Positions 4,848 to 61,182 are shown, counted from the whole stretch's first letter. The stretch is 63,709 bases of DNA, filler included, from Candidatus Nezhaarchaeota archaeon WYZ-LMO8 (GCA_004347965.1; 4 parts of 3 records of this genome joined end to end with filler, not necessarily neighbours in it), one strand, 5' to 3'. Numbers and translations are program-made. Notes: generated from the letters alone by a model not told the origin.

Positions 4848-4947
4848 NNNNNNNNNNNNNNNNNNNNNNNNNNNNNNNNNNNNNNNNNNNNTTAATTAAT
4901 TAANNNNNNNNNNNNNNNNNNNNNNNNNNNNNNNNNNNNNNNNNNNN
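4848..4947. other. Artificial contig linker
   Basis: N-run, TTAATTAATTAA, N-run. Confidence 0.98.
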
Positions 4948-35377: not shown

Positions 35378-35477
35378 NNNNNNNNNNNNNNNNNNNNNNN
35401 NNNNNNNNNNNNNNNNNNNNNTTAATTAATTAANNNNNNNNNNNNNNNNNNNNNNNNNNNNNNNNNNNNNNNNNNNN
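35378..35477. other. Artificial contig linker
   Basis: N-run, TTAATTAATTAA, N-run. Confidence 0.98.
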
Positions 35478-53100: not shown

Positions 53101-53183
53101 GTTGGGCACCTTAACAGTAATTAATACGGTGAGAGTAGGTTATTTATTTGTGATGAGGTAGTTAAAAGAAGTTGTGGTGGAAA

Positions 53184-53615
53184 ATGAAGTTGAGACTTAT
53201 GGATCTATTGGCATGTCCAATGTGTAAGAAGTTTCCACTAAAGCTGCTAATATTTAGGGTTGAAGAGAGGGATAAACCTAAAGAGCTACCATCGAAGTGC
53301 CCTCTCTACTGTGCTTTAAAGAGCGGTTGGGTTAAGGACGTTAAGCCCACTGATGATGAGTGTCTCGACTGCTTTTCGAAGGAGATTGTTGAAGGGCTCA
53401 TTATATGTGAGGAATGCTATAGATGGTATCCGATAATTGATGAAATACCACACATGTTACCCGATGATTTGCGGCTTATGGATCCTGACGAGGAGCTAGA
53501 GTTCATGAATAGGTGGATCGATAAGTTTCCTAAAGAAATAACTGAGAGCGGTAGACCATTTAATGAGGAGAGCTTAAGAGAGTATAGGGTTAAGAAGGGT
53601 AGGCGGCGTAGCTAA
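53184..53615 (+). CDS. Trm112-like protein (long archaeal form)
   Basis: LMDLLACPMC and GLIICEECYRWYPIIDEIPHMLPD motifs; probable ATG at 53184. Confidence 0.88.
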   Translation: MKLRLMDLLACPMCKKFPLKLLIFRVEERDKPKELPSKCPLYCALKSGWVKDVKPTDDECLDCFSKEIVEGLIICEECYRWYPIIDEIPHMLPDDLRLMDPDEELEFMNRWIDKFPKEITESGRPFNEESLREYRVKKGRRRS

Positions 53616-54403
53616 TGAGCTTGTTTGAAAGGGTCTTGAGGTATCTTGGGGTTTACAAGCTCTACGGGAAATGGCTTGAAAGGAATGTAAAGTCTAGGCC
53701 CATGCCCCAGCACGTGGGCGTGATCCTGGACGGCAATAGGCGTTGGGCTAGAAGCAAGGGGTTGTCCCTAGAAGAGGGTTATAGAATTGGTGCTAAGAAA
53801 GTCGAAGAGCTATTGAATTGGTGTTTAAAACTTGGCATCAAGACATTGACGATATACGTGTTTTCAACTGAAAACTTCAAACGAAAGACTGAGGAAGTAG
53901 ATGTAGTCATGAAAATTGCTGAAGAGACGTTGCGAAGAGTCTTGAAAGATGAGCGAGTACATAGATATGGTGTTAGAGTCAAGGCCTTGGGAAGAACATG
54001 GTTGCTACCACGTAATGTTCAGAAGCTTCTATATGAGCTTGAAGAGATGACATCAAGTTATTCAAACTACTACCTTAATGTAGCGATTGCCTACGGTGGG
54101 AGGGCAGAAATAATAGATGCTATAAGACAGATATCAAGCTTAGTTGTTAAGGGCTCTCTTAAACCTGAGGACATAGACGAGGAGTTATTCGAGAAATTCC
54201 TATATACATCTCATTTACCAAACCCCCATCCAGACTTAATCGTAAGGACCTCAGGTGAGGAGAGGTTAAGCGGATTTCTTCTTTGGCAGTCGGCTTATAG
54301 CGAGCTTTGCTTCCTCGATGTATACTGGCCAGAGTTCAGGTACATAGATTTGCTCAGAGTTATTAGGACATATCAAAAGCGTCAAAGAAGATTTGGAGTT
54401 TAA
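53615..54403 (+). CDS. uppS: cis-prenyltransferase (polyprenyl diphosphate synthase)
   Basis: ILDGNRRWA, FSTENF, YGGRAEI and RTSGEERLSGFLLWQ motifs. Confidence 0.95.
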   Translation: MSLFERVLRYLGVYKLYGKWLERNVKSRPMPQHVGVILDGNRRWARSKGLSLEEGYRIGAKKVEELLNWCLKLGIKTLTIYVFSTENFKRKTEEVDVVMKIAEETLRRVLKDERVHRYGVRVKALGRTWLLPRNVQKLLYELEEMTSSYSNYYLNVAIAYGGRAEIIDAIRQISSLVVKGSLKPEDIDEELFEKFLYTSHLPNPHPDLIVRTSGEERLSGFLLWQSAYSELCFLDVYWPEFRYIDLLRVIRTYQKRQRRFGV

Positions 54404-57234
54404 ACTTCACTATTTGCACATTTTACGCATAATATCTTCCTCCTAATGAGACCTCTAGATTCGCCTATGCAATCTCTACATACGTAATTGCCACATAAAG
54501 CGCAACGATTTGCGTGATCTCTACAAACAGCTCTTCCACATACTTCACATGTATATGAATGTGAGAGACAAACATCTCTTCCACATACGTTGCACGTCCT
54601 CCTCTCCTCATTTTCGCAGAATGTCTTGCTGCAAACTTCACATGTCCAACTATGCTGCTTACAAACTACTGTACCACATTCAGCACACGCAAGGAGGCAT
54701 GAAGAGCAGAGAGGCTCATTGCATATCGAGCATCTATTAGCATGCGCACTACATATCGTCTTAGAGCACGAAGAGCACTTTAACATGTGAGAGTCAAAGT
54801 GTACTTCACATAGTATTGTTCCACATGCAGAGCACCTCAGTGAGTGCTTTGAGCATATGGAGTTAAAACACATCTCACAAATTGCTGAGCTTGAGAGATA
54901 TTTTAGCTCTGTATTGCATATGGTACATGAGCCGTAGAAACCTTTGCCATTTAAAGCATTCCACCAAATTGTAACTTCCTTAGAATTGTCCTTACTAGCT
55001 ATTACTAACTTTGCTTTATACACTGGAATCCACATAAGCTGAAAATTAACGATGGAGAGCTCTTTAGGTTCAGGTTGGATTATCATGGACTTTACATCGA
55101 AGCTTTTGAGGGAGTTGATCTTCATCCTTAGCTCTCTGATCTTCTCTCTCCACTCTCTTTCCAGAGCTCTCTTCTTCTCATTCAGCTCTTTTATTTGAAC
55201 GTTTATCTTCAACATTTCGTCTCTAATGTTCTCAAGCTTATTCTTTCTAATGTCGAGCTGCTTCGAGAGCTTAAGTATTGGCTTTCCATGCTTCTTTGCC
55301 TCCTTGAGCTGCTCACTTAACTGCTCGTATTCACGACGTAAAACATTGTAACTCTCACCTAATTTTCGAAGTCTCTTATTGTATCTCTCTATCGCCTCGT
55401 CTATCTCGGTCATGGATTTAAGGTAGCTCTCTTCGAGGTTCCTCTCTTCACATCGTTCTATCTCAGCTACCTCGTTGAGACATTCTGATAAGAAGGCTTG
55501 CTTATCACTTGTTAACGAAAACTTGCCGAGTTTCTTACTGTAGTAAAGTGTCTTTACAAGTTTTGTGGCAGCGTAAGCTAGTAGTTCCTCTCTAATCTTC
55601 TTGACTATCTTGGCGTCTGCTATGTTAAAGCATGTTCTCTGATAGGAGCCGGGTTGTGGAGGTGATGGAAGAAGATCGAGAGATTCTAAGTCCTTCAATT
55701 CTATATCGTAAGCTTGAGAGCTATCCCAATTTATCTCCCTAACCTCTACGCCTATGGGTATTAATCTTTGAATAGCATCTGAGAGCTTCACATAGGGGTT
55801 TTGTCTCTCAACTTTTGCCTCAACTTCGCAGTAAAGGGCAGGCATGTAGTTTAGCTCTAATGACGTTACGTCGAAACTCAGATTAGAGTATGTGTTCTCG
55901 ATCTTCTCCAATATCTCCGATTCATTAACAACTATCGGCAGGAAGACTTGAGGAAGACCTACCACTGAAATAGGTTGTTTCTGAAGTTTGTCTAAGTCGC
56001 ATGTAGCTGCCTTTGAAAGCTTTTCAAGCAACCTTGCAACTGAAGCATCACTAGGTTTAACTGCGTAATCCAATGGATTAAAGCCTTCACCCCCATGCTT
56101 AGTTTCTCGAGGTCTGATCCTAACTACTATCGGTATCTTCTCAACAGATTCACCGGTTATAACAGCTTCACCACTTTCAAGCCAGGCTATGACGTTCTCC
56201 CACTCATTCTCAAGCCCTCCACTTTCAAGCGTTATCCTCATGTCATTAGGATCAGATAGCCTATGGATAACCCATGTGCCAACAAGCCCCCTAACGGTTG
56301 TATCAAGTAGTTGAGGTCTTTGAGTTATGACTATCAAGCCTGCACCAAACTTTCTGCCTTCCTGGGCAAACCTTCTAATGATGTCAGTAGCCTTGGTCCT
56401 TTCTCTACCAGCGAATCTATGGGCCTCATCGAGGACACAGTAGAAGGGCCTTAATCTACCTTCTACCACTGCTTGAAATACCTTCTCAAGGATTGAAGAG
56501 ACTAGAGATATCTGTTCCTCCCTTAATAGTCCTCGAAGATTAATTATTGTACATTGACCTGGAACTATTAAGTCCTCAGGTTTAGCCACTTCCAATGCAT
56601 TAAGCGGAAGATCTATGCCGGGACTAACTTTAGGGTCTCCAAACTCCACGACGTTTTCAGCGTAAGATTTAGGGTATACACCAAACTCTTCGGAGGTTAC
56701 ATCTCCCATTACCTTTAAACTTGAGTATTCGCCATGGATGTCTATTATCAGCAGCGGTATTCCCTTCTTCAATAGCTCCTCGATGAAGACGCCGGCTGTA
56801 TATGACTTCCCTGAACCTGGCTTTCCAACTATGAATATCCTTCCAAGCTTCTTTATTGGAAGCCATATCTTGCAATCCAGTGCCTTCAGTTTGCCTATGT
56901 ATATTCCAGTCGAGGGATCATCGCTAAGCTTTAATGCTCTCCTAATGTGCTCTTCCTTAGCTAAGTAGACAGAGCTTCCAGGTATGAAGGGGAGCTTGGG
57001 CCCTTGACCTATGACAAAGCATTCAGCATAAACGCCGTCATCGGTTCGATAAAGCTCCTTGATTCCACAAACGTAGTATGTGCCCTCGTGAGCTATTTCG
57101 AGGAAAGAGTTCTTCCCAACTTCATCAGATAAGATCTTAATCCTGAAGCTACTAGTAGTGGTCTTACCTTCAATAATGCCTACTGGTTTAGCGTAGGAGA
57201 TGTTTGATTCGCTCTTCTCCAATTTGTCCCCCAA
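54400..57234 (-). CDS. HerA/FtsK-superfamily ATPase fused to a coiled coil and a C-terminal multi-zinc-finger array (944 aa)
   Basis: Short beta-rich N-terminus; Walker A GKPGSGKS; IIDIHGEY; Walker B VLDEAH; EGRKFG; ITQRP; about 150 aa of heptad-rich region; nine CxxC-x4-Cxx(H/C) repeats. Confidence 0.88.
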   Translation of the reverse strand: MGDKLEKSESNISYAKPVGIIEGKTTTSSFRIKILSDEVGKNSFLEIAHEGTYYVCGIKELYRTDDGVYAECFVIGQGPKLPFIPGSSVYLAKEEHIRRALKLSDDPSTGIYIGKLKALDCKIWLPIKKLGRIFIVGKPGSGKSYTAGVFIEELLKKGIPLLIIDIHGEYSSLKVMGDVTSEEFGVYPKSYAENVVEFGDPKVSPGIDLPLNALEVAKPEDLIVPGQCTIINLRGLLREEQISLVSSILEKVFQAVVEGRLRPFYCVLDEAHRFAGRERTKATDIIRRFAQEGRKFGAGLIVITQRPQLLDTTVRGLVGTWVIHRLSDPNDMRITLESGGLENEWENVIAWLESGEAVITGESVEKIPIVVRIRPRETKHGGEGFNPLDYAVKPSDASVARLLEKLSKAATCDLDKLQKQPISVVGLPQVFLPIVVNESEILEKIENTYSNLSFDVTSLELNYMPALYCEVEAKVERQNPYVKLSDAIQRLIPIGVEVREINWDSSQAYDIELKDLESLDLLPSPPQPGSYQRTCFNIADAKIVKKIREELLAYAATKLVKTLYYSKKLGKFSLTSDKQAFLSECLNEVAEIERCEERNLEESYLKSMTEIDEAIERYNKRLRKLGESYNVLRREYEQLSEQLKEAKKHGKPILKLSKQLDIRKNKLENIRDEMLKINVQIKELNEKKRALEREWREKIRELRMKINSLKSFDVKSMIIQPEPKELSIVNFQLMWIPVYKAKLVIASKDNSKEVTIWWNALNGKGFYGSCTICNTELKYLSSSAICEMCFNSICSKHSLRCSACGTILCEVHFDSHMLKCSSCSKTICSAHANRCSICNEPLCSSCLLACAECGTVVCKQHSWTCEVCSKTFCENEERRTCNVCGRDVCLSHSYTCEVCGRAVCRDHANRCALCGNYVCRDCIGESRGLIRRKILCVKCANSEV

Positions 57235-57477
57235 CTCTATGAAGTTTTAGGCAACTATTGTAGTTAATTACAAACAAAATGTAAGCTAAATGTTTTTAAG
57301 TCATTTGGCTTTCATGAAGCTCCAACCTTTAATTTGAATTTTATTTCGCACATTTAAAGGAGAGCTTCCAAAGCTCGAAGATTAAAGCTTTTAACGTTTA
57401 TAAGACCTTCGTGAAGGCTTAAGTGCTGAGTGCTTTATTCATGGAAAATGTTATATCATCCTCCGCCCCTCTAGCGT

Positions 57478-58329
57478 ATGATGGACGAGCATGTGATGGA
57501 AGCTTTGGGGAGGACCAGAATAGTGGTACGCAACGGTAAAGTTGTAGATGTTGGAAAGCCACTGATAAAGTCTTGTCCGTTAGCAAGCAGGTTTGAGGAA
57601 CCGGTAAAGATATTTTCGAAGGAGGAGATTAAGAGGAACATAGAGTTCAGGATAAGAAAGTTTGGTATGTTCACTAAGAATAGGATCGTTACATCAGACG
57701 AAGACTTCGTTCCCTTTGGATCTTCTGAGCTAATAAGCTTTGGATTAAAGAAGCACATGATCGGCGGTGCCGTCATAGTCGCTGATTGTGCTGGAACTGT
57801 TGTAACAAGAAATCCGTTATTAGTCCAGGGCCTTGGGGGTAGACTATCTGGTCTTGTGAAAACAAGCCCAATACCAGAGGTTATTAAGAGAATAGAGTTG
57901 GAAGGAGGCATCGTCCTTGATAAAGAAGGAGCCAGAATAGATCAGTTAGCTGGAGTTGAGCTCGCCTACAAGCTTGGGATGTCAAATGTTGCTGTAACAA
58001 TAGTTAGTGCTAAAGACGCTGAGATCATAAGGGCTAGGTACGAGGATTCATGGATATTTGCCACGCACTTAACCGGGACGTCAAAGGAGGAGACAGAGAT
58101 CTTAGCAAGCACCTGTGACGTGATAACTTCGTGTGCATCAAGATGGGTGAGGGAGATCGCTGGAAGGAAGGCTTTACTACAAGCTGGCACTACAATACCC
58201 GTCTTTGCGATGACTCAAAGAGCGAAGGATCTAGTGTTGGAGAGACTTAAGAGCCTAGAACGTCAGATACTCGTGAAATTAGAGAAATTACCTTTTACTC
58301 CGACTGAAAGCCCCTTCCCCCTCATTTAA
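57478..58329 (+). CDS. Methanogenesis marker protein 8 (DUF2099)
   Basis: DEHVMEALG, CPL, NIEFRI..FGM, FGSSE, DCAGTV and VQGLGGRLSGLVKTSPIPEVI motifs. Confidence 0.88.
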   Translation: MMDEHVMEALGRTRIVVRNGKVVDVGKPLIKSCPLASRFEEPVKIFSKEEIKRNIEFRIRKFGMFTKNRIVTSDEDFVPFGSSELISFGLKKHMIGGAVIVADCAGTVVTRNPLLVQGLGGRLSGLVKTSPIPEVIKRIELEGGIVLDKEGARIDQLAGVELAYKLGMSNVAVTIVSAKDAEIIRARYEDSWIFATHLTGTSKEETEILASTCDVITSCASRWVREIAGRKALLQAGTTIPVFAMTQRAKDLVLERLKSLERQILVKLEKLPFTPTESPFPLI

Positions 58330-58338
58330 TCGTTCGAT

Positions 58339-61182
58339 CTAGCTTTGAGACCAGTACATCCTCGTCCTGATGTAGTTCTTCTCGGCTTCTAGTATATCTT
58401 TAAAAAGTGTACCCTCACCTCTAGCGTCTTTAGCAAGTATTCTTGATGCTGTTTGAGGACCTACACCCCTTGCAGCTAGAACCATAACTGCCTTCTTCCC
58501 ATAGGTTAAAACCAGACTTGCTGACATTTGATATCTTTTAATCTCATCCACCTCTTGCTTGGTGAGCTTGCCTGACAGCTTCTTCCTAATTAACTTCTCA
58601 ATCTTATCGTCACTAGGCCATGTAACCGCTATGTACCTTGCCCCACACTTAGGGCACTTAATGTCTTCTGGCAGGTACTTGACTTTCCTAGAAGTTGTCC
58701 AGTTACCACAATACATACATACAAGCTTTACAGTTCTCTCCATAAGTCTCTCGAGGACTAGTTCGTCTAGGGTCTTGTCGCTACTGAGCCTTAATGGGAT
58801 CGCTTCGAGAGGGACGTATTTATTGAGTATCGGCGTGGCCAAAGGTGATGCCCTGTTCCCTCCTTCGAACCAAACTACTTCTATAATGTTTTTTCTGATC
58901 AGTTCTAGGATTTGTTTAAGGCCATCAACGTCAAACTTGTCTATCAGGACCTCCATTCTAGCAGCCCTATCAACAATTGTTCCTAGCAGGAACTTGTAAG
59001 CTTTAGAGAAAGCTTTTACGTTAGCATCCTTCTCTACGACTCCCATTCGCTTCGCAGCATGGAATAGTCTCCACAAGTAGACGTCGGATGACGGCATGAG
59101 GTTGTTCGTTAAAGAGTCCACGTCCTCTGGTGATAATTCACTAAGTAATTTAGCTACAAAGCTAGCTCTGATGTTTCGAGACGATATAAGTAGGACTCTG
59201 TACTGGTCTGCTCTATAGTGGATCATCGAGGAAATCGAGCTACTCAACATTGACGATAGTATGAGGCCAAGGAGCTCATTAACCTTGGATCCAAAACAGG
59301 CGTGAACCACGACGTAGTTGCCAAGTCCTTCAACCACGATCCTCTTATCGTGGGGGAACGGTAGACCTAGCTTTAAGTACTCCACCACGTCGCTCAAAGC
59401 CACTTTAATGGCTCTATCTGTTAATGGATAGCCTTCTAAAGCCTTCTTTAGGTCGAGCTTCTCTTTGTATAGCTCCTCGATACTTCTTCTGATGGAAGCG
59501 ACTTCTAACGCTACGTCCATGGGTACTGGTATGAGCTCCCCAATCCATGTTGGTATGGCCCCCTCAATGTCATCCGACGGTTCCACGTAGACCTTAGACT
59601 CCTCAACTCCTATGATCTTCCAAACCCTTCCTCCTAGTATTATGCTTAAAGTCTCCCTAACCTTTGTGACGACAAACTCCTCATCTAAAACCCCAACTTT
59701 CCGCTTGTCTGGTAGAGAGACTACATCGTACTTCTTCACGTCGGGTATCATTGACAAGTTATGGAGGTAAAACTCCATCGTCGCCCTACCGGCTCGCTTG
59801 AGCTTCGAGCCCACAAGCCTGATGACTCCTCTATCGTGGAGGAACTTCACGGTTTCAAGAAAGTCTTCGAGCGTTAAATTCCTGTAAGGATAAGCCCCCC
59901 TGATTATGCTTAGGGCTTCATTTACTTCTATAGCACCCTCATCCATCACGAGTCCTACTACCTGGTGTGCTAGAACGTCGAGAGCACGTTCATGAATCTT
60001 TATTTCCTCGAGCTTTTGGTTAAGTGCCCTCTTAGCTAAAACCGCTGACTCTATGACGTCATCCGATGAATAAGAGATTATTAGACCCCTTGCTACACCG
60101 CCTACTCTATGGCCTGATCGACCGATTCTCTGCAATAGAGGTGTTGATTGTCTAGGTGACATAAATTGTATTACGAAATCGACTGAGCCTATGTCTATTC
60201 CGAGCTCAAGAGATGATGTGCAAATTAAAGCCTTAACCTTACCCTCTTTGAAGTCTTCCTCTGCCTGAATCCTCTCATCTCTTGATAGTGAGCCATGATG
60301 AGCTCTTACTTCAAAGTCACTGGCTATAAGTGCCAAGCGCGAGGATAATAACTCAGTAGCTTCTCTTGTATTTGTGAAGACTAAGACGCTTCCATGCTTC
60401 CTTATTTCACTGGCTATCTTTAGCATCGCTGAAGACGCATGAGGAGTTACTTGAAGTATCGACGTGATCTCTTCATGACCACTAATAGAAGGAGAGTCAA
60501 CTATGATCTCCATCTTTCTGGGCATGGGAACGTAAACTAGATCTACCTCCTCATCGCTCCCTGCGAGGAATCTCTTAACGACATCTATTGAGCCAACAGT
60601 AGCAGATAATCCTATCCTCTGAAGACTCCTACCAGTTATCCTCTTTAATCTTTCAAGAGCTATGGATAGTTGGGTCCCCCTCTTATCAGCTACTAACTCA
60701 TGTATTTCATCTACTATAACCCACCTGACATTAATTAGGCTCCTCCTAAGAGTCCTGCCGATTAAGATTGCTTGTAAAGTCTCGGGTGTGGTTATCAACA
60801 TATCTGGAGGTCGTTGAGCTTGCTTTCTCCTAACATGCTGCGGAGTATCTCCATGCCTAACTTCAATGCTTAGACCAATATTCTCAGCTAGTTTCGACAA
60901 TCTCCCCCAGAGATCTCTATTCAATGCTCGAAGAGGCGTTACGTAGATGCACATTATTCCTCGGCATGTACCCTCCCTCTTCAGCCTTAACATCATGTCG
61001 AGGACTGGTAGTACTGCAGCCTCTGTCTTACCGGTTCCTGTTGGAGATACTATCAAGAGGTTCTTCCCAGACAATATTAGCGGTATGGCCTTCTCCTGGG
61101 GTTCCGTTGGCCTAGTAAAGCCTAGAGCTGCTAGCTCTCTCCTTATCTCCTCATTAAGCATCTCAAAGGCGTTCTTAGCCAT
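58339..61182 (-). CDS. lhr: Lhr-family SF2 helicase (archaeal form with C-terminal Zn finger)
   Basis: PTGTGKT, PLRALNRD, TTPETL, DEIH, SAT, HHGSLS, SSLELGID and QRIGRSGH motifs; C-terminal CxxC...CPKC. Confidence 0.93.
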   Translation of the reverse strand: MAKNAFEMLNEEIRRELAALGFTRPTEPQEKAIPLILSGKNLLIVSPTGTGKTEAAVLPVLDMMLRLKREGTCRGIMCIYVTPLRALNRDLWGRLSKLAENIGLSIEVRHGDTPQHVRRKQAQRPPDMLITTPETLQAILIGRTLRRSLINVRWVIVDEIHELVADKRGTQLSIALERLKRITGRSLQRIGLSATVGSIDVVKRFLAGSDEEVDLVYVPMPRKMEIIVDSPSISGHEEITSILQVTPHASSAMLKIASEIRKHGSVLVFTNTREATELLSSRLALIASDFEVRAHHGSLSRDERIQAEEDFKEGKVKALICTSSLELGIDIGSVDFVIQFMSPRQSTPLLQRIGRSGHRVGGVARGLIISYSSDDVIESAVLAKRALNQKLEEIKIHERALDVLAHQVVGLVMDEGAIEVNEALSIIRGAYPYRNLTLEDFLETVKFLHDRGVIRLVGSKLKRAGRATMEFYLHNLSMIPDVKKYDVVSLPDKRKVGVLDEEFVVTKVRETLSIILGGRVWKIIGVEESKVYVEPSDDIEGAIPTWIGELIPVPMDVALEVASIRRSIEELYKEKLDLKKALEGYPLTDRAIKVALSDVVEYLKLGLPFPHDKRIVVEGLGNYVVVHACFGSKVNELLGLILSSMLSSSISSMIHYRADQYRVLLISSRNIRASFVAKLLSELSPEDVDSLTNNLMPSSDVYLWRLFHAAKRMGVVEKDANVKAFSKAYKFLLGTIVDRAARMEVLIDKFDVDGLKQILELIRKNIIEVVWFEGGNRASPLATPILNKYVPLEAIPLRLSSDKTLDELVLERLMERTVKLVCMYCGNWTTSRKVKYLPEDIKCPKCGARYIAVTWPSDDKIEKLIRKKLSGKLTKQEVDEIKRYQMSASLVLTYGKKAVMVLAARGVGPQTASRILAKDARGEGTLFKDILEAEKNYIRTRMYWSQS

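Follow-up and report, generated by a model that had tools for sequence, protein, structure and literature searches.

A HerA-type ATPase with a predicted coiled-coil hairpin and zinc array in Methanomethylicia and some Bathyarchaeia

The window (the whole stretch of DNA that was analysed, 63,709 nucleotides) comes from Candidatus Nezhaarchaeota archaeon WYZ-LMO8 (GCA_004347965.1) and is a composite of three contigs with N runs between them. The ORF listing and translation showed a single uninterrupted ORF of 944 aa on the minus strand at 54400..57234, with a TTG start and no internal stops. From N- to C-terminus, its product includes a HerA/DUF87 ATPase core and, past a disordered linker, an alpha/beta domain followed by a coiled coil, a beta piece and CxxC-type units. 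UppS is convergent at the 3' end of the gene (Prenyltransf, 2e-79, Pfam) and DUF2099 lies upstream in divergent orientation (7.3e-103, Pfam); Trm112 and Lhr are also neighbours at this locus. No nurA, mre11 or rad50 was found near the gene, and the canonical mre11-rad50-nurA-herA operon of the genome is on another contig (C23). This agrees with the first-pass annotation, which had described flanks of uppS and marker protein 8 and none of the usual HerA neighbours. The features are as follows.

54400..57234, minus strand: whole gene, 944 codons plus stop; codon 5 is a second in-frame TTG
56962..57180, minus strand: N-terminal beta-rich domain, putatively HAS-barrel-like, residues 19-91 (AF2 strands, pLDDT 87-92)
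56065..56907, minus strand: RecA-like HerA/FtsK ATPase core, residues 110-390 (Pfam DUF87 and motifs)
56803-56826, minus strand: Walker A, GKPGSGKS, residues 137-144 (invariant in 93 sequences)
56419-56436, minus strand: Walker B, VLDEAH, residues 267-272 (invariant in 93 sequences)
Residues 292-297, minus strand: EGRKFG (invariant in 93 sequences)
Residues 304-307, minus strand: TQRP, extended form TQRPQLLD (invariant in 93 sequences)
55993..56064, minus strand: disordered linker, residues 391-414 (pLDDT <50 at 392-414)
55504..55992, minus strand: alpha/beta middle domain, residues 415-577, with a long beta hairpin at 453-493 (AF2 pLDDT 88-96)
55105..55503, minus strand: antiparallel coiled-coil hairpin, helices 578-649 and 654-710, about 10 nm (AF2 models)
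54940..55104, minus strand: beta piece after the hairpin, residues 711-765, its C-terminal end being the conserved WNAxNGxG junction (invariant columns)
54403..54939, minus strand: predicted zinc array, residues 766-944: CTIC, nine CxxC-x4-Cxx(H/C/E) units of 15-19 aa, CVKC (unit table)

The gene sits in the middle of a 28.2-kb contig (C10), distant from the N runs. A contig from an independent study spans 54000-56157 with 0 differences, every domain junction included, which was the check on the junctions that the first-pass annotation had proposed, and a 137-kb contig from another run contains the entire gene stretch. The full architecture is common to 92 other protein clusters, and the single frame is kept in all of these and in two complete genomes; at one relative locus (L049) the gene is broken into two ORFs. 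The family is conserved; the window gene is not a product of misassembly, and it is not an isolated case.

A sigma-70 promoter and terminator scan at the gene gave chance-level results, with a model that does not apply to archaea. Eight short contigs from one RNA run (X15) lay over the gene and were 90-99% alike, a weak hint at most that a relative is transcribed, with DNA carry-over as an alternative source.

Motif invariance was read from an alignment of 93 full-length relatives, in which the HerA/FtsK motifs reported earlier for this ORF were all intact. The mean identity of the ATPase to 79 distant members was 56.5%, compared with 18-36% for the other parts; together with the invariant motifs (n = 93), this indicates that ATPase activity is under selection. 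The HerA central domain of Pfam (PF01935, DUF87) matched residues 111-216 at 58.1 bits against a gathering score of 23.2. With the full-length AF2 model (mean pLDDT 86.8), the top Foldseek matches were the HerA hexamers 4d2i (Sulfolobus, the best, E 1.9e-24) and 9x1m, and the alignment to 4d2i (482 columns) spanned the whole 464-residue chain. Among PDB sequences the ATPase matched the HerA of T. kodakarensis (3e-24) and of S. solfataricus (1.4e-21), and the PADLOC models HerA and mad8 matched it at ~100 bits. By homology, then, the protein is a HerA-type ATPase of the HerA clade in the HerA/FtsK superfamily. It is predicted to be soluble, no transmembrane segment being expected from a top 19-residue Kyte-Doolittle mean of 1.36.

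The linker was 10.9% identical among distant members. A search of 44 middle regions against Pfam at E <= 10 returned coiled-coil families only and no YqhG, and the best phmmer match of the middle domain among PDB sequences had an E of 0.99. The model of residues 415-765 gave 0 Foldseek matches at E <= 1e-3, and in a wide VIA search only its helical hairpin was matched; the structure search suggested in the first-pass annotation thus placed the ATPase with HerA and gave no match for the globular part of the middle domain. In the ESM Atlas the tail (best score 0.75) and the middle domain (0.84) matched unnamed clusters only. With local HMMs, the middle domain was matched weakly and in no proteins other than the Mrr-fused ones (E 5.8e-4 to 2.6e-3), and no shorter stand-alone copies of residues 415-944 were found at E <= 1e-3. 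A YqhG-like middle domain was considered and dropped; hhalign against the module-only class described below left the middle domain unaligned.

The coiled coil has a conserved tip consensus, A.kegrstLK.S.Qi..RE, and its VIA matches included Smc (5xg2, Z 11.4) and the seryl-tRNA synthetase arm (6x94, rmsd 1.3 over 78 residues). The first-pass annotation had pictured a long arm ending in the zinc array. This was not borne out by the models: they fold the coiled coil into an antiparallel hairpin, which returns the chain to the alpha/beta domain ahead of the array, so that the array is predicted to exit from the base of the hairpin and not from its tip. In the beta piece, which is homologous to its counterpart in other architectures, W735, P737, W758, N759, G765 and G768 were invariant in the alignment of 93.

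The Cys/His tail starts at C770 (54925-54927). The regular expression C..C-x4-C..[H/C/E] found exactly nine units in it, starting at residues 786, 801, 820, 835, 850, 865, 881, 896 and 911, the unit at 865 terminating in CENE, with a lone CTIC before the nine and a lone CVKC after them; the earlier description of the tail agrees with this table. The 33 Cys and 7 His of the tail are enough ligands for ~10 four-ligand sites, and the tail probably binds zinc at about that number of predicted sites. The Cys columns of the array were invariant among aligned relatives. The non-Cys positions were 21% identical and the net charge ran from -6 to +13 across relatives; this poor conservation, with a charge not consistently positive, argues against a fixed DNA-binding surface. 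Tail length was 248-269 aa in 91/93 sequences and 190 aa in 2/93. The window array is four units short of most relatives' arrays, with a 63-column in-register gap relative to 41/42 aligned relatives, and Tandem Repeats Finder found no DNA-level tandem repeat in the tail. The similarities of the tail to AN1, FYVE and B-box fingers were weak and all under the family cut-offs; for AN1 (PF01428) the window tail scored 11.2 bits and one relative's tail 26.5, against a gathering score of 27.9.

The beta piece and array form a module that also occurs on other proteins. Profile A3, by which the module family was defined, found 853 representative proteins at E <= 1e-3; the window protein shows the module pattern, a WxP...WNxxNGxG beta piece and then in-register CxxC-x4-Cxx(H/C) units. 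No Pfam family matched the module above its cut-off. The heads found there are other HerA-like ATPases, Mrr nucleases (as in P0143, Mrr_cat at 41.5 bits), SNF2 and UvrD helicases, the latter accompanied by a DUF559 nuclease, and an unnamed large class; most identifiable heads are DNA enzymes, and P0156 joins the module to an E2 ubiquitin-conjugating domain. In P0122, identical 30-aa repeats mark a very recent expansion of units. In the sole context of a module relative that was viewed (n = 1), the module-only P0169 follows straight after an SNF2 helicase, near a NucS-like nuclease, a UvrD-PD-(D/E)xK protein, a CARF-like regulator and a Type III methylase, in a restriction-modification-like island. 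When 15 relatives were run in PADLOC, the six lacking an ATPase or helicase head gave 0 matches and the other nine matched via the head only. A metagenome scan with P0193 found no relative.

Full-length matches to the window protein were found in 59/401 Thermoproteota genomes sampled, so that homologues, which the first-pass annotation had proposed to seek, extend the fusion well beyond one genome. The family was present in 8/9 genomes of f1 plus the window's own genome, 28/32 of f4, 5/5 of f5 and 8/8 of f17 (Bathyarchaeia). It was not found in f2 (0/4) or f3 (0/1), the other two families of the window's own order, and the protein is therefore dispensable. In the ATPase tree the Culexarchaeia, Nezhaarchaeales and Methanomethylicales each formed a separate clade at 100% support; the Bathyarchaeia clade had 85% and the clade of Asgard short forms 94%. 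Neighbourhoods were syntenic inside orders and different across orders, and all consisted of housekeeping genes, for example TrmI and phosphoglycerate mutase in Bathyarchaeia, and a homocitrate-synthase-like gene, a PRTase and Alba in Methanomethylicales. No partner gene was conserved across orders in 47 long-form loci plus the window locus, and when 19 neighbour clusters that recur at long-form loci were Pfam-scanned, each through a single representative, none matched a Sir2, DUF4297 or nuclease family. The lack of a conserved partner gene was thus confirmed, and the candidate "system" of the first-pass annotation became a single conserved gene. Viral contigs searched with the tail held no relative, and the gene is near-universal and single-copy inside its lineages. 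Inheritance looks vertical on the presence in these lineages, the tree clades, the order-level housekeeping synteny, the near-constant tail length and the absence from viral contigs.

The best reading of the protein, to which we give a probability of about 0.45, is a DNA translocase, hexameric and vertically inherited, to which a targeting module is tethered. The motor would be a soluble P-loop ATPase of the HerA clade that, by homology, forms a hexameric ring and pumps double-stranded DNA through the pore. The disordered linker would attach one module per subunit, made of the alpha/beta domain, the inserted ~10-nm antiparallel hairpin and a zinc rod of ~10 interleaved, cross-braced, AN1/B-box-like sites. 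The module may position or tether the motor on its substrate or partner, and a non-catalytic, tethering role is suggested because it has no conserved catalytic residue pattern. On this reading the protein would serve genome maintenance on its own in Methanomethylicia (Nezhaarchaeales and Culexarchaeia among them) and in some Bathyarchaeia, and would not belong to mobile defence. One link to DNA is that the beta-plus-zinc module is also fused to Mrr, UvrD plus DUF559, SNF2 and other HerA-like heads.

An unlikely but not negligible alternative is a single-protein device against invaders, in which foreign DNA or a protein of viral origin would be sensed by the zinc array or hairpin tip, after which the HerA ring would seize and translocate the invader's DNA. 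HerA proteins are common in defence, and this, with the island around P0169 and the PADLOC matches, keeps a defence role in consideration. The nuclease and helicase heads on module relatives, the recent unit expansion in some of them and the variable surface of the array would also fit, as would the published "capture" systems built on HerA/FtsK, whose sensor domains evolve fast (PMC12839542). However, the window protein carries no effector domain, no effector gene is conserved next to it, the gene is single-copy in housekeeping synteny with a tree congruent with its lineages, array length is constant, the module itself matches no PADLOC model, and the link to a defence-like island is one context.

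A distinctly less probable explanation is a motor that organises or segregates chromosomes in place of SMC condensin where this is absent, a pump of the FtsK kind, with coiled-coil and zinc arms that would bridge or anchor DNA. When SMC presence was scored at E <= 1e-50 in 401 genomes, 210 matched, compared with 0/60 sampled genomes of the window's class and 0/8 of f17, and 54/59 genomes with the long HerA protein lacked an SMC match. In the window's genome (93% complete) Rad50 was the only SMC-type head found, FtsZ/tubulin was not found, and the combination of ring translocase and coiled-coil arms in one protein would suit such a role. Against it, five genomes (f32, f34) have both proteins, f2, f3 and many others (f12, f19, f21, f27) have neither, and the closest ATPase relatives are the short forms of Asgard archaea, whose genomes probably encode SMC. 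The SMC pattern is confounded by descent because it may represent only two or three independent lineages. It is likewise a long shot that this family, with six arms to a ring, supplies the chromosome motor that Methanomethylicia and some Bathyarchaeia would otherwise be missing; it would then be a third solution, next to SMC and to ClsN, the coalescin of Sulfolobales.

It is more doubtful still that the motor works on protein or RNA rather than DNA, for instance as a factor of a proteostasis or ubiquitin-like pathway whose AN1/B-box-like fingers would bind protein partners. AN1, FYVE and B-box fingers bind mostly proteins or lipids, and the weak tail similarities, the E2 fusion in P0156 and an array charge that is not consistently basic point this way; yet those similarities are all below cut-off, the solved close relatives of the ATPase are all DNA translocases and the identifiable module heads are mostly DNA enzymes. 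An artefact of assembly or gene calling that fused separate genes, for which the split gene at L049 and the composite nature of the window might be cited, is refuted by the intact contigs and the single frame of the relatives.

In this family the HerA ring is permanently fused to the predicted hairpin and to a zinc rod of 10-14 predicted sites, and the single copy has been retained across entire archaeal classes, cultured methanogens (Methanosuratincola) among them, which makes bench study possible. The module recurs on bacterial and archaeal nucleases and helicases, and knowing its ligand would help to annotate hundreds of protein families. That the family and SMC have nearly complementary distributions, confounded by descent as this is, offers a testable lead on chromosome organisation in these archaea; if the chromosome-motor reading were true, HerA ring arms would act in nucleoid organisation or segregation where SMC was not found.

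HerA-type rings are known from two settings: DNA-end resection, where they partner the NurA nuclease, and bacterial anti-phage defence, where effectors use them as scaffolds. In the literature searched, no paper was found on the family and no characterised protein with HerA, hairpin and zinc array, and passages of PMC7159879, PMC12839542 and PMC10853773 do not describe the architecture. The earlier claim of novelty thus stands for the full combination and not for the beta-plus-zinc module, which the 853 representatives carry with other heads.

Canonical archaeal HerA (S. solfataricus 4d2i; T. kodakarensis HerA-NurA 9x1l/9x1m) has the RecA-like core with Walker A/B and, as predicted, a barrel-like N-terminal domain in common with the window protein and gave the best structural (E 1.9e-24) and sequence (3e-24) matches, yet is only ~19% identical. 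The NCBIfam equivalogs for canonical HerA were not reached (NF040937, 94.1 vs 800; NF040819, 85.5 vs 970). Canonical HerA lacks the 550-residue C-terminal module and is encoded with nurA, mre11 and rad50, unlike the window gene. The closest ATPase relatives, short HerA-like ATPases (495-597 aa) from Promethearchaeota, Odin-, Baldr-, Hel-, Hod- and Hermodarchaeota, are 42-53% identical over residues 1-390/413 and share the end motif RETxHGGxGFNPLD. Past the core they have only a coiled coil of 100-160 residues, with neither alpha/beta domain nor zinc array, and their conserved neighbours (M42 peptidase, GAPDH, an LPG-synthase-like gene) are unlike those of the long forms.

Divergent HerA-like long forms (P0138 from Asgardarchaeia, P0242 from Thor-/Hodarchaeales, P0132 from Anaerolineae, and P0158, P0129, P0199 and P0200) keep the order ATPase, coiled coil, beta piece, zinc array, and BLAST alignments cover the ATPase's second half and everything C-terminal to it, but at 22-29% identity only. 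With Walker A at about residue 25-50, they have a short N-terminal barrel or none, and P0132 and P0158 have a hydrophobic helix at the end. The module-only class, a few members of which have a weak Pfam YqhG match, and the Mrr-, SNF2- and UvrD-fused proteins have no head or other heads and arrays of varying length, and are partly bacterial (Patescibacteria, Pseudomonadota and Anaerolineae among those named). Their beta piece and array are homologous to those of the window family, which aligned to the module-only class in hhalign with a probability of 100% (E 7.1e-49) over the end of the coiled coil, the beta piece and the array.

The anti-phage Sir2-HerA and DUF4297-HerA share the HerA fold (Foldseek E 1e-16 to 1e-19), but the NCBIfam anti-phage HerA equivalogs NF042943/NF042944 were not reached (HerA_antiphage 58.9 vs 800, the second model 48 vs 850), and those complexes use a separately encoded, ring-docked effector, whereas the window locus encodes none. 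FtsK/SpoIIIE (PF01580) scored 16.6 bits, below its threshold of 24, and no N-terminal membrane anchor is expected. The antiparallel arm resembles SMC segments (5xg2, as above), and TIGR02169 gave a sub-threshold 17.3 bits on the coiled coil alone (residues 576-711); Rad50 and SMC, however, have an ABC head, in contrast to the RecA-like ring class of the window protein, whose hairpin has no hinge, no zinc hook and 0 Cys at its tip. Compared with AN1, B-box and FYVE fingers, the spacing CxxC...CxxC-x4-CxxH recalls AN1, but the window family would have a chain of 10-14 sites in place of a two-site finger.

The HerA gene, at 54400-57234 on the minus strand, is a single ORF of 944 aa with a TTG start and no internal stop (ORF list and translation). 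The window is a composite of C1 pieces followed by contigs C6 (4948-35377) and C10 (35478-63709); N runs occur solely at 2001-2100, 4848-4947 and 35378-35477, and gene order across these joins is meaningless. The gene is located centrally in C10, a contig of 28.2 kb.

Genes around the HerA gene (window positions).
53172-53615, plus strand: Trm112-like zinc-ribbon protein, 147 aa, its stop overlapping the uppS start
53615-54403, plus strand: UppS, sharing four bases with the 3' end of the HerA gene
57478-58329, plus strand: DUF2099, divergent, upstream of the HerA gene
58339-61182, minus strand: Lhr-type helicase, 947 aa, with DEAD, Helicase_C, WH_Lhr and DEAD_assoc matches and C-terminal Cys pairs

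The first-pass annotation had described one ORF holding an ATPase, a coiled coil and a Cys/His tail, flanked by uppS and marker protein 8. All of these sequence features were recovered (ORF, Pfam, tail units), with UppS at the 3' end and DUF2099 divergently upstream. The stretch was present whole (sampled-word share at least 0.96) in ten hot-spring metagenome runs from six studies. When four runs were compared, X5 spanned 54000-57700 with one 137.6-kb contig, and a contig from X10, an independent study, covered 54000-56157 with 0 differences, bridging the ATPase/linker, linker/middle, middle/coil, coil/beta and beta/zinc junctions. With these five junctions crossed without differences, the misassembly that had been considered for the fusion is set aside, and the fusion is a real gene and not a join.

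The Pfam model DUF87 (HerA central domain) matched residues 111-216 at 58.1 bits (cut-off 23.2), while AAA_10, Zot, FtsK_SpoIIIE and HerA_C each matched under their own cut-offs. Foldseek with the full model placed S. solfataricus HerA first (4d2i, E 1.9e-24, 482 columns), followed by T. kodakarensis HerA-NurA (9x1m) and the Sir2-HerA and DUF4297-HerA complexes. The closest solved chains by sequence were T. kodakarensis HerA (3e-24) and S. solfataricus HerA (1.4e-21), so the assignment to HerA-type ATPases stands. None of the ten PDB sequence matches of this ATPase at E ≤1e-3 is named YjgR or DUF853. Scores lay far under the cut-offs of the NCBIfam equivalogs HerA_Thermprot (94.1 versus 800), helicase_HerA (85.5 versus 970), CedD (78.1 versus 600) and HerA_antiphage (58.9 versus 800). 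Three DUF87 genes were found in the window's genome: a 543-aa HerA on contig C23 within a canonical mre11-rad50-nurA-herA row, a 466-aa DUF87 ATPase on contig C45 (locus L085, G000:C45:22500-27500) beside an XPD-like helicase on the same strand, and the window gene, which represents a separate HerA-clade subfamily. The XPD-like helicase has 633 aa, with DEAD_2 and Helicase_C_2. All 93 sequences of the family share Walker A, Walker B, EGRKFG and TQRPQLLD without change. Compared with 79 distant members, the 944-aa protein showed 56.5% identity in the ATPase, 25.5% in the middle domain, 18.1% in the coil, 31.9% in the beta piece and 35.6% in the zinc array (21.3% at non-Cys positions).

The full-length AF2 model, built from the 93-sequence alignment, had a mean pLDDT of 86.8, and a separate model of residues 415-765 gave identical elements with a pLDDT of 92.5.

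Domains of the 944-aa protein in the AF2 model.
residues 19-91: beta-rich N-domain
residues 110-390: RecA-like core
residues 392-414: disordered linker (pLDDT <50)
residues 415-577: alpha/beta domain with a long hairpin at 453-493
residues 578-649 and 654-710: two helices with a four-residue turn between them
residues 715-759: strands
C-terminal tail: short beta pairs

The VIA matches for the helix pair were antiparallel hairpins, namely the Smc coiled coil 5xg2 (Z 11.4), the seryl-tRNA synthetase arm 6x94 (rmsd 1.3 over 78 residues) and an Snf7 hairpin; from this alignment the coiled coil would fold back on itself, forming an arm of ~10 nm. The earlier picture of a long arm ending in the zinc array did not survive, as the array in the model leaves the hairpin at its base, beside the alpha/beta domain and away from the tip. 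The tip is the most conserved stretch of the coil (consensus A.kegrstLK.S.Qi..RE). Within residues 415-765, only P465, W735, P737, N759 and the WNAxNGxG junction are invariant. Taken together, these results show a conserved, intact HerA-clade ATPase joined through a flexible linker to a module that is probably non-catalytic.

From C770, the tail reads CTIC, nine units of the form C..C-x4-C..(H/C/E) starting at 786, 801, 820, 835, 850, 865 (CENE), 881, 896 and 911, and then CVKC, with 33 Cys and 7 His in all. Four residues separate CxxC from CxxH inside a unit and three separate CxxH from the next CxxC, leaving one spare CxxC at either end of the array. With this spacing, knuckle i of one type may pair with knuckle i+1 of the other, giving a cross-braced chain. 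Such a chain would bind about 10 zinc ions in the 944-aa protein and about 14 in the 1000-aa forms. The tail profile gave sub-threshold matches among PDB sequences to FYVE (6w9n, E 0.0036) and the Midline-1 B-box (E 0.0069), and a Methanosuratincola tail scored 26.5 bits against AN1, under the cut-off of 27.9. Across 43 aligned tails, the Cys columns show little or no variation, and register is kept along the array. Tails measure 248-269 aa with 39-48 Cys in 91 of the 93 family members; the 944-aa protein and P0002, which is 83% identical to it, have 190-aa tails with 33-34 Cys. The difference is a 63-column in-register gap (columns 98-163 of the module alignment A3) that spans four units and is common to these two proteins only. 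Both tail forms occur within one genus (a 951-aa frame in genome G186; 1019-1025-aa frames in G151, G224 and G254), so the four-unit deletion is recent. The zinc units themselves are old, since Tandem Repeats Finder detected no DNA-level tandem repeat in the tail DNA.

Of 7999 candidates scored in the word-indexed protein search, 597 proteins reached E ≤1e-3. Among the 120 matches listed, rows 2-93 were clusters of 940-1028 aa covering 94-100% of the query, named only 'DUF87 domain-containing protein' and derived from Nezhaarchaeales, Bathyarchaeia, Methanomethylicia/Verstraetearchaeota and Methanosuratincola; with these 92 clusters, the architecture is not confined to a single genome. Strong matches (full-length or fragmented, best E 5e-79 or lower) were present in 59 of the 401 Thermoproteota genomes searched. 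Besides the window's genome, they comprise 8 of the 9 other genomes in its family, another 37 from its class (families f4 28/32, f5 5/5, f6 1/1, f7 2/4, f8 1/1) and 13 from other classes (f17 8/8, f32 three, f34 two). The same search gave no match in f2 (0/4) and f3 (0/1), both of the window's order, or in f10 (0/56), and the remaining families matched only at the level of canonical HerA (~1e-22 over residues 220-390). A scan of genome contigs found 179 relatives; the top 80 comprised 47 long-form Thermoproteota loci, including two complete Methanosuratincola chromosomes, and 33 Asgard loci matching only residues 1-390/413. Orthologues occur in the cultured Methanosuratincola petrocarbonis LWZ-6 and M. 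verstraetei LCB70 (loci L050 and L026). In the ATPase-domain tree (77 rows), rooted on the very long branch of the genome's canonical HerA, five groups came out as clades, with support of 100 for each of Culexarchaeia, Nezhaarchaeales and Methanomethylicales, 85 for Bathyarchaeia and 94 for the Asgard short forms. The protein is a HerA-clade ATPase that carries a coiled-coil and multi-zinc module not previously described, and its family is widespread in certain archaeal classes.

Gene order is kept within orders and differs between them.

Conserved gene order around the HerA gene.
Nezhaarchaeales: Lhr, DUF2099, HerA gene, UppS, Trm112
Bathyarchaeia: AAA ATPase, phosphoglycerate mutase, PRC-barrel protein, HerA gene, GCD14/TrmI methyltransferase
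Methanomethylicales: phosphoribosyltransferase, nucleoside phosphorylase, HD protein, homocitrate-synthase-like gene, HerA gene, ACT protein, Alba
Culexarchaeia: old-yellow-enzyme-type reductase, DUF1614, ASCH, HerA gene

Among the six Nezhaarchaeales-clade loci, window included, the Lhr-type helicase keeps its position, two genes away from the HerA gene, in the window, L004 and L009; it is a fragment in L006, and the contigs of L005 and L008 end short of it. The Trm112-like/uppS pair adjoins the HerA gene in all five loci of this clade that reach past its 3' end, window included. The neighbourhood comparison found no adjoining gene conserved across orders, in agreement with the absence of a partner gene noted earlier.

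Searching the profile of residues 711-944 (beta piece and zinc array) against 1.84 billion representatives gave 853 matches at E ≤1e-3, 311 at 1e-10 and 42 at 1e-30. The 145 top-scoring representatives outside the set of relatives collected before were clustered with arrays masked, and Pfam labels were taken from 72 scanned proteins. One class of 64 was obtained, with Pfam YqhG in three scanned members (P0193, 36.2 bits; P0160, 24.5, and P0208, 16.9, both under the cut-off of 25), along with 14 HerA-like proteins, 13 of an unnamed 211-556-aa class, 10 SNF2 helicases, 7 Mrr_cat-linked, 3 E2-linked and 2 UvrD with DUF559; 32 were paired or single. By hhalign, the family matched 22 members of the 64-protein class over the coil end, beta piece and whole array (probability 100%, E 7.1e-49). 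Named members came from Anaerolineae, Pseudomonadota, Patescibacteria, Asgardarchaeia, Thorarchaeota and Hodarchaeales. In the module-only protein P0122 (885 aa), a 30-residue double unit is repeated in tandem about eleven times with identical sequence; this array has expanded very recently, in contrast to that of the archaeal family, which is fixed.

A housekeeping role in genome maintenance is our preferred reading (probability about 0.45), favoured by single-copy presence, order-level synteny, a tree that follows the lineages, an array of constant length and the absence of any effector. The protein would form a hexameric dsDNA pump with six tethered modules, and these may target or anchor the motor. 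A role in defence or 'capture', which we consider unlikely, draws on the variable surface of the zinc array and the gene company of the module's relatives. In the one context seen, the module-only protein P0169 directly follows an SNF2 helicase (L088:1377-11891), in a row with all genes on one strand: CARF-like/MarR protein, NucS-like nuclease, UvrD-PD-(D/E)xK protein, SNF2 helicase, P0169 and Type III DNA methyltransferase. This row resembles a restriction-modification or defence island of an undescribed kind. PADLOC had no model for the module, and relatives of the tail were not found in viral contigs.

Of the same 401 genomes, 210 matched the SMC model TIGR02169 at E ≤1e-50; these included none of the 60 genomes of the window's class and none of the 8 of f17. 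In the window's genome (93% complete), Rad50 was the only SMC-type head found, no tubulin/FtsZ match was obtained, and there was one weak Snf7-like match (G000:C12:37326-37808). That the long HerA protein substitutes for SMC is nevertheless improbable: 54 of the 59 genomes with it give no SMC match, but G073, G081, G105, G097 and G129 hold both, many SMC-less families also lack it, and the pattern is confounded by descent.

The 944-aa ATPase can be set against its known relatives. Canonical HerA is encoded with mre11-rad50-nurA on C23, whereas the 944-aa protein is encoded apart, on a different contig. The Asgard short forms consist only of the ATPase and a coiled coil of 100-160 residues, and the separate conserved row in which they occur includes an M42 peptidase. 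For the divergent HerA-like long forms, the alignment with the 944-aa protein runs from the second half of the ATPase to the C-terminal end, at 22-29% identity. In two bacterial ones, P0132 and P0158, and in the E2 fusion P0156, the zinc array is followed by a strongly hydrophobic helix (19-residue hydropathy mean 2.3-2.6), which suggests a C-terminal membrane anchor; the 944-aa protein and the archaeal family differ from these three in having no such helix.
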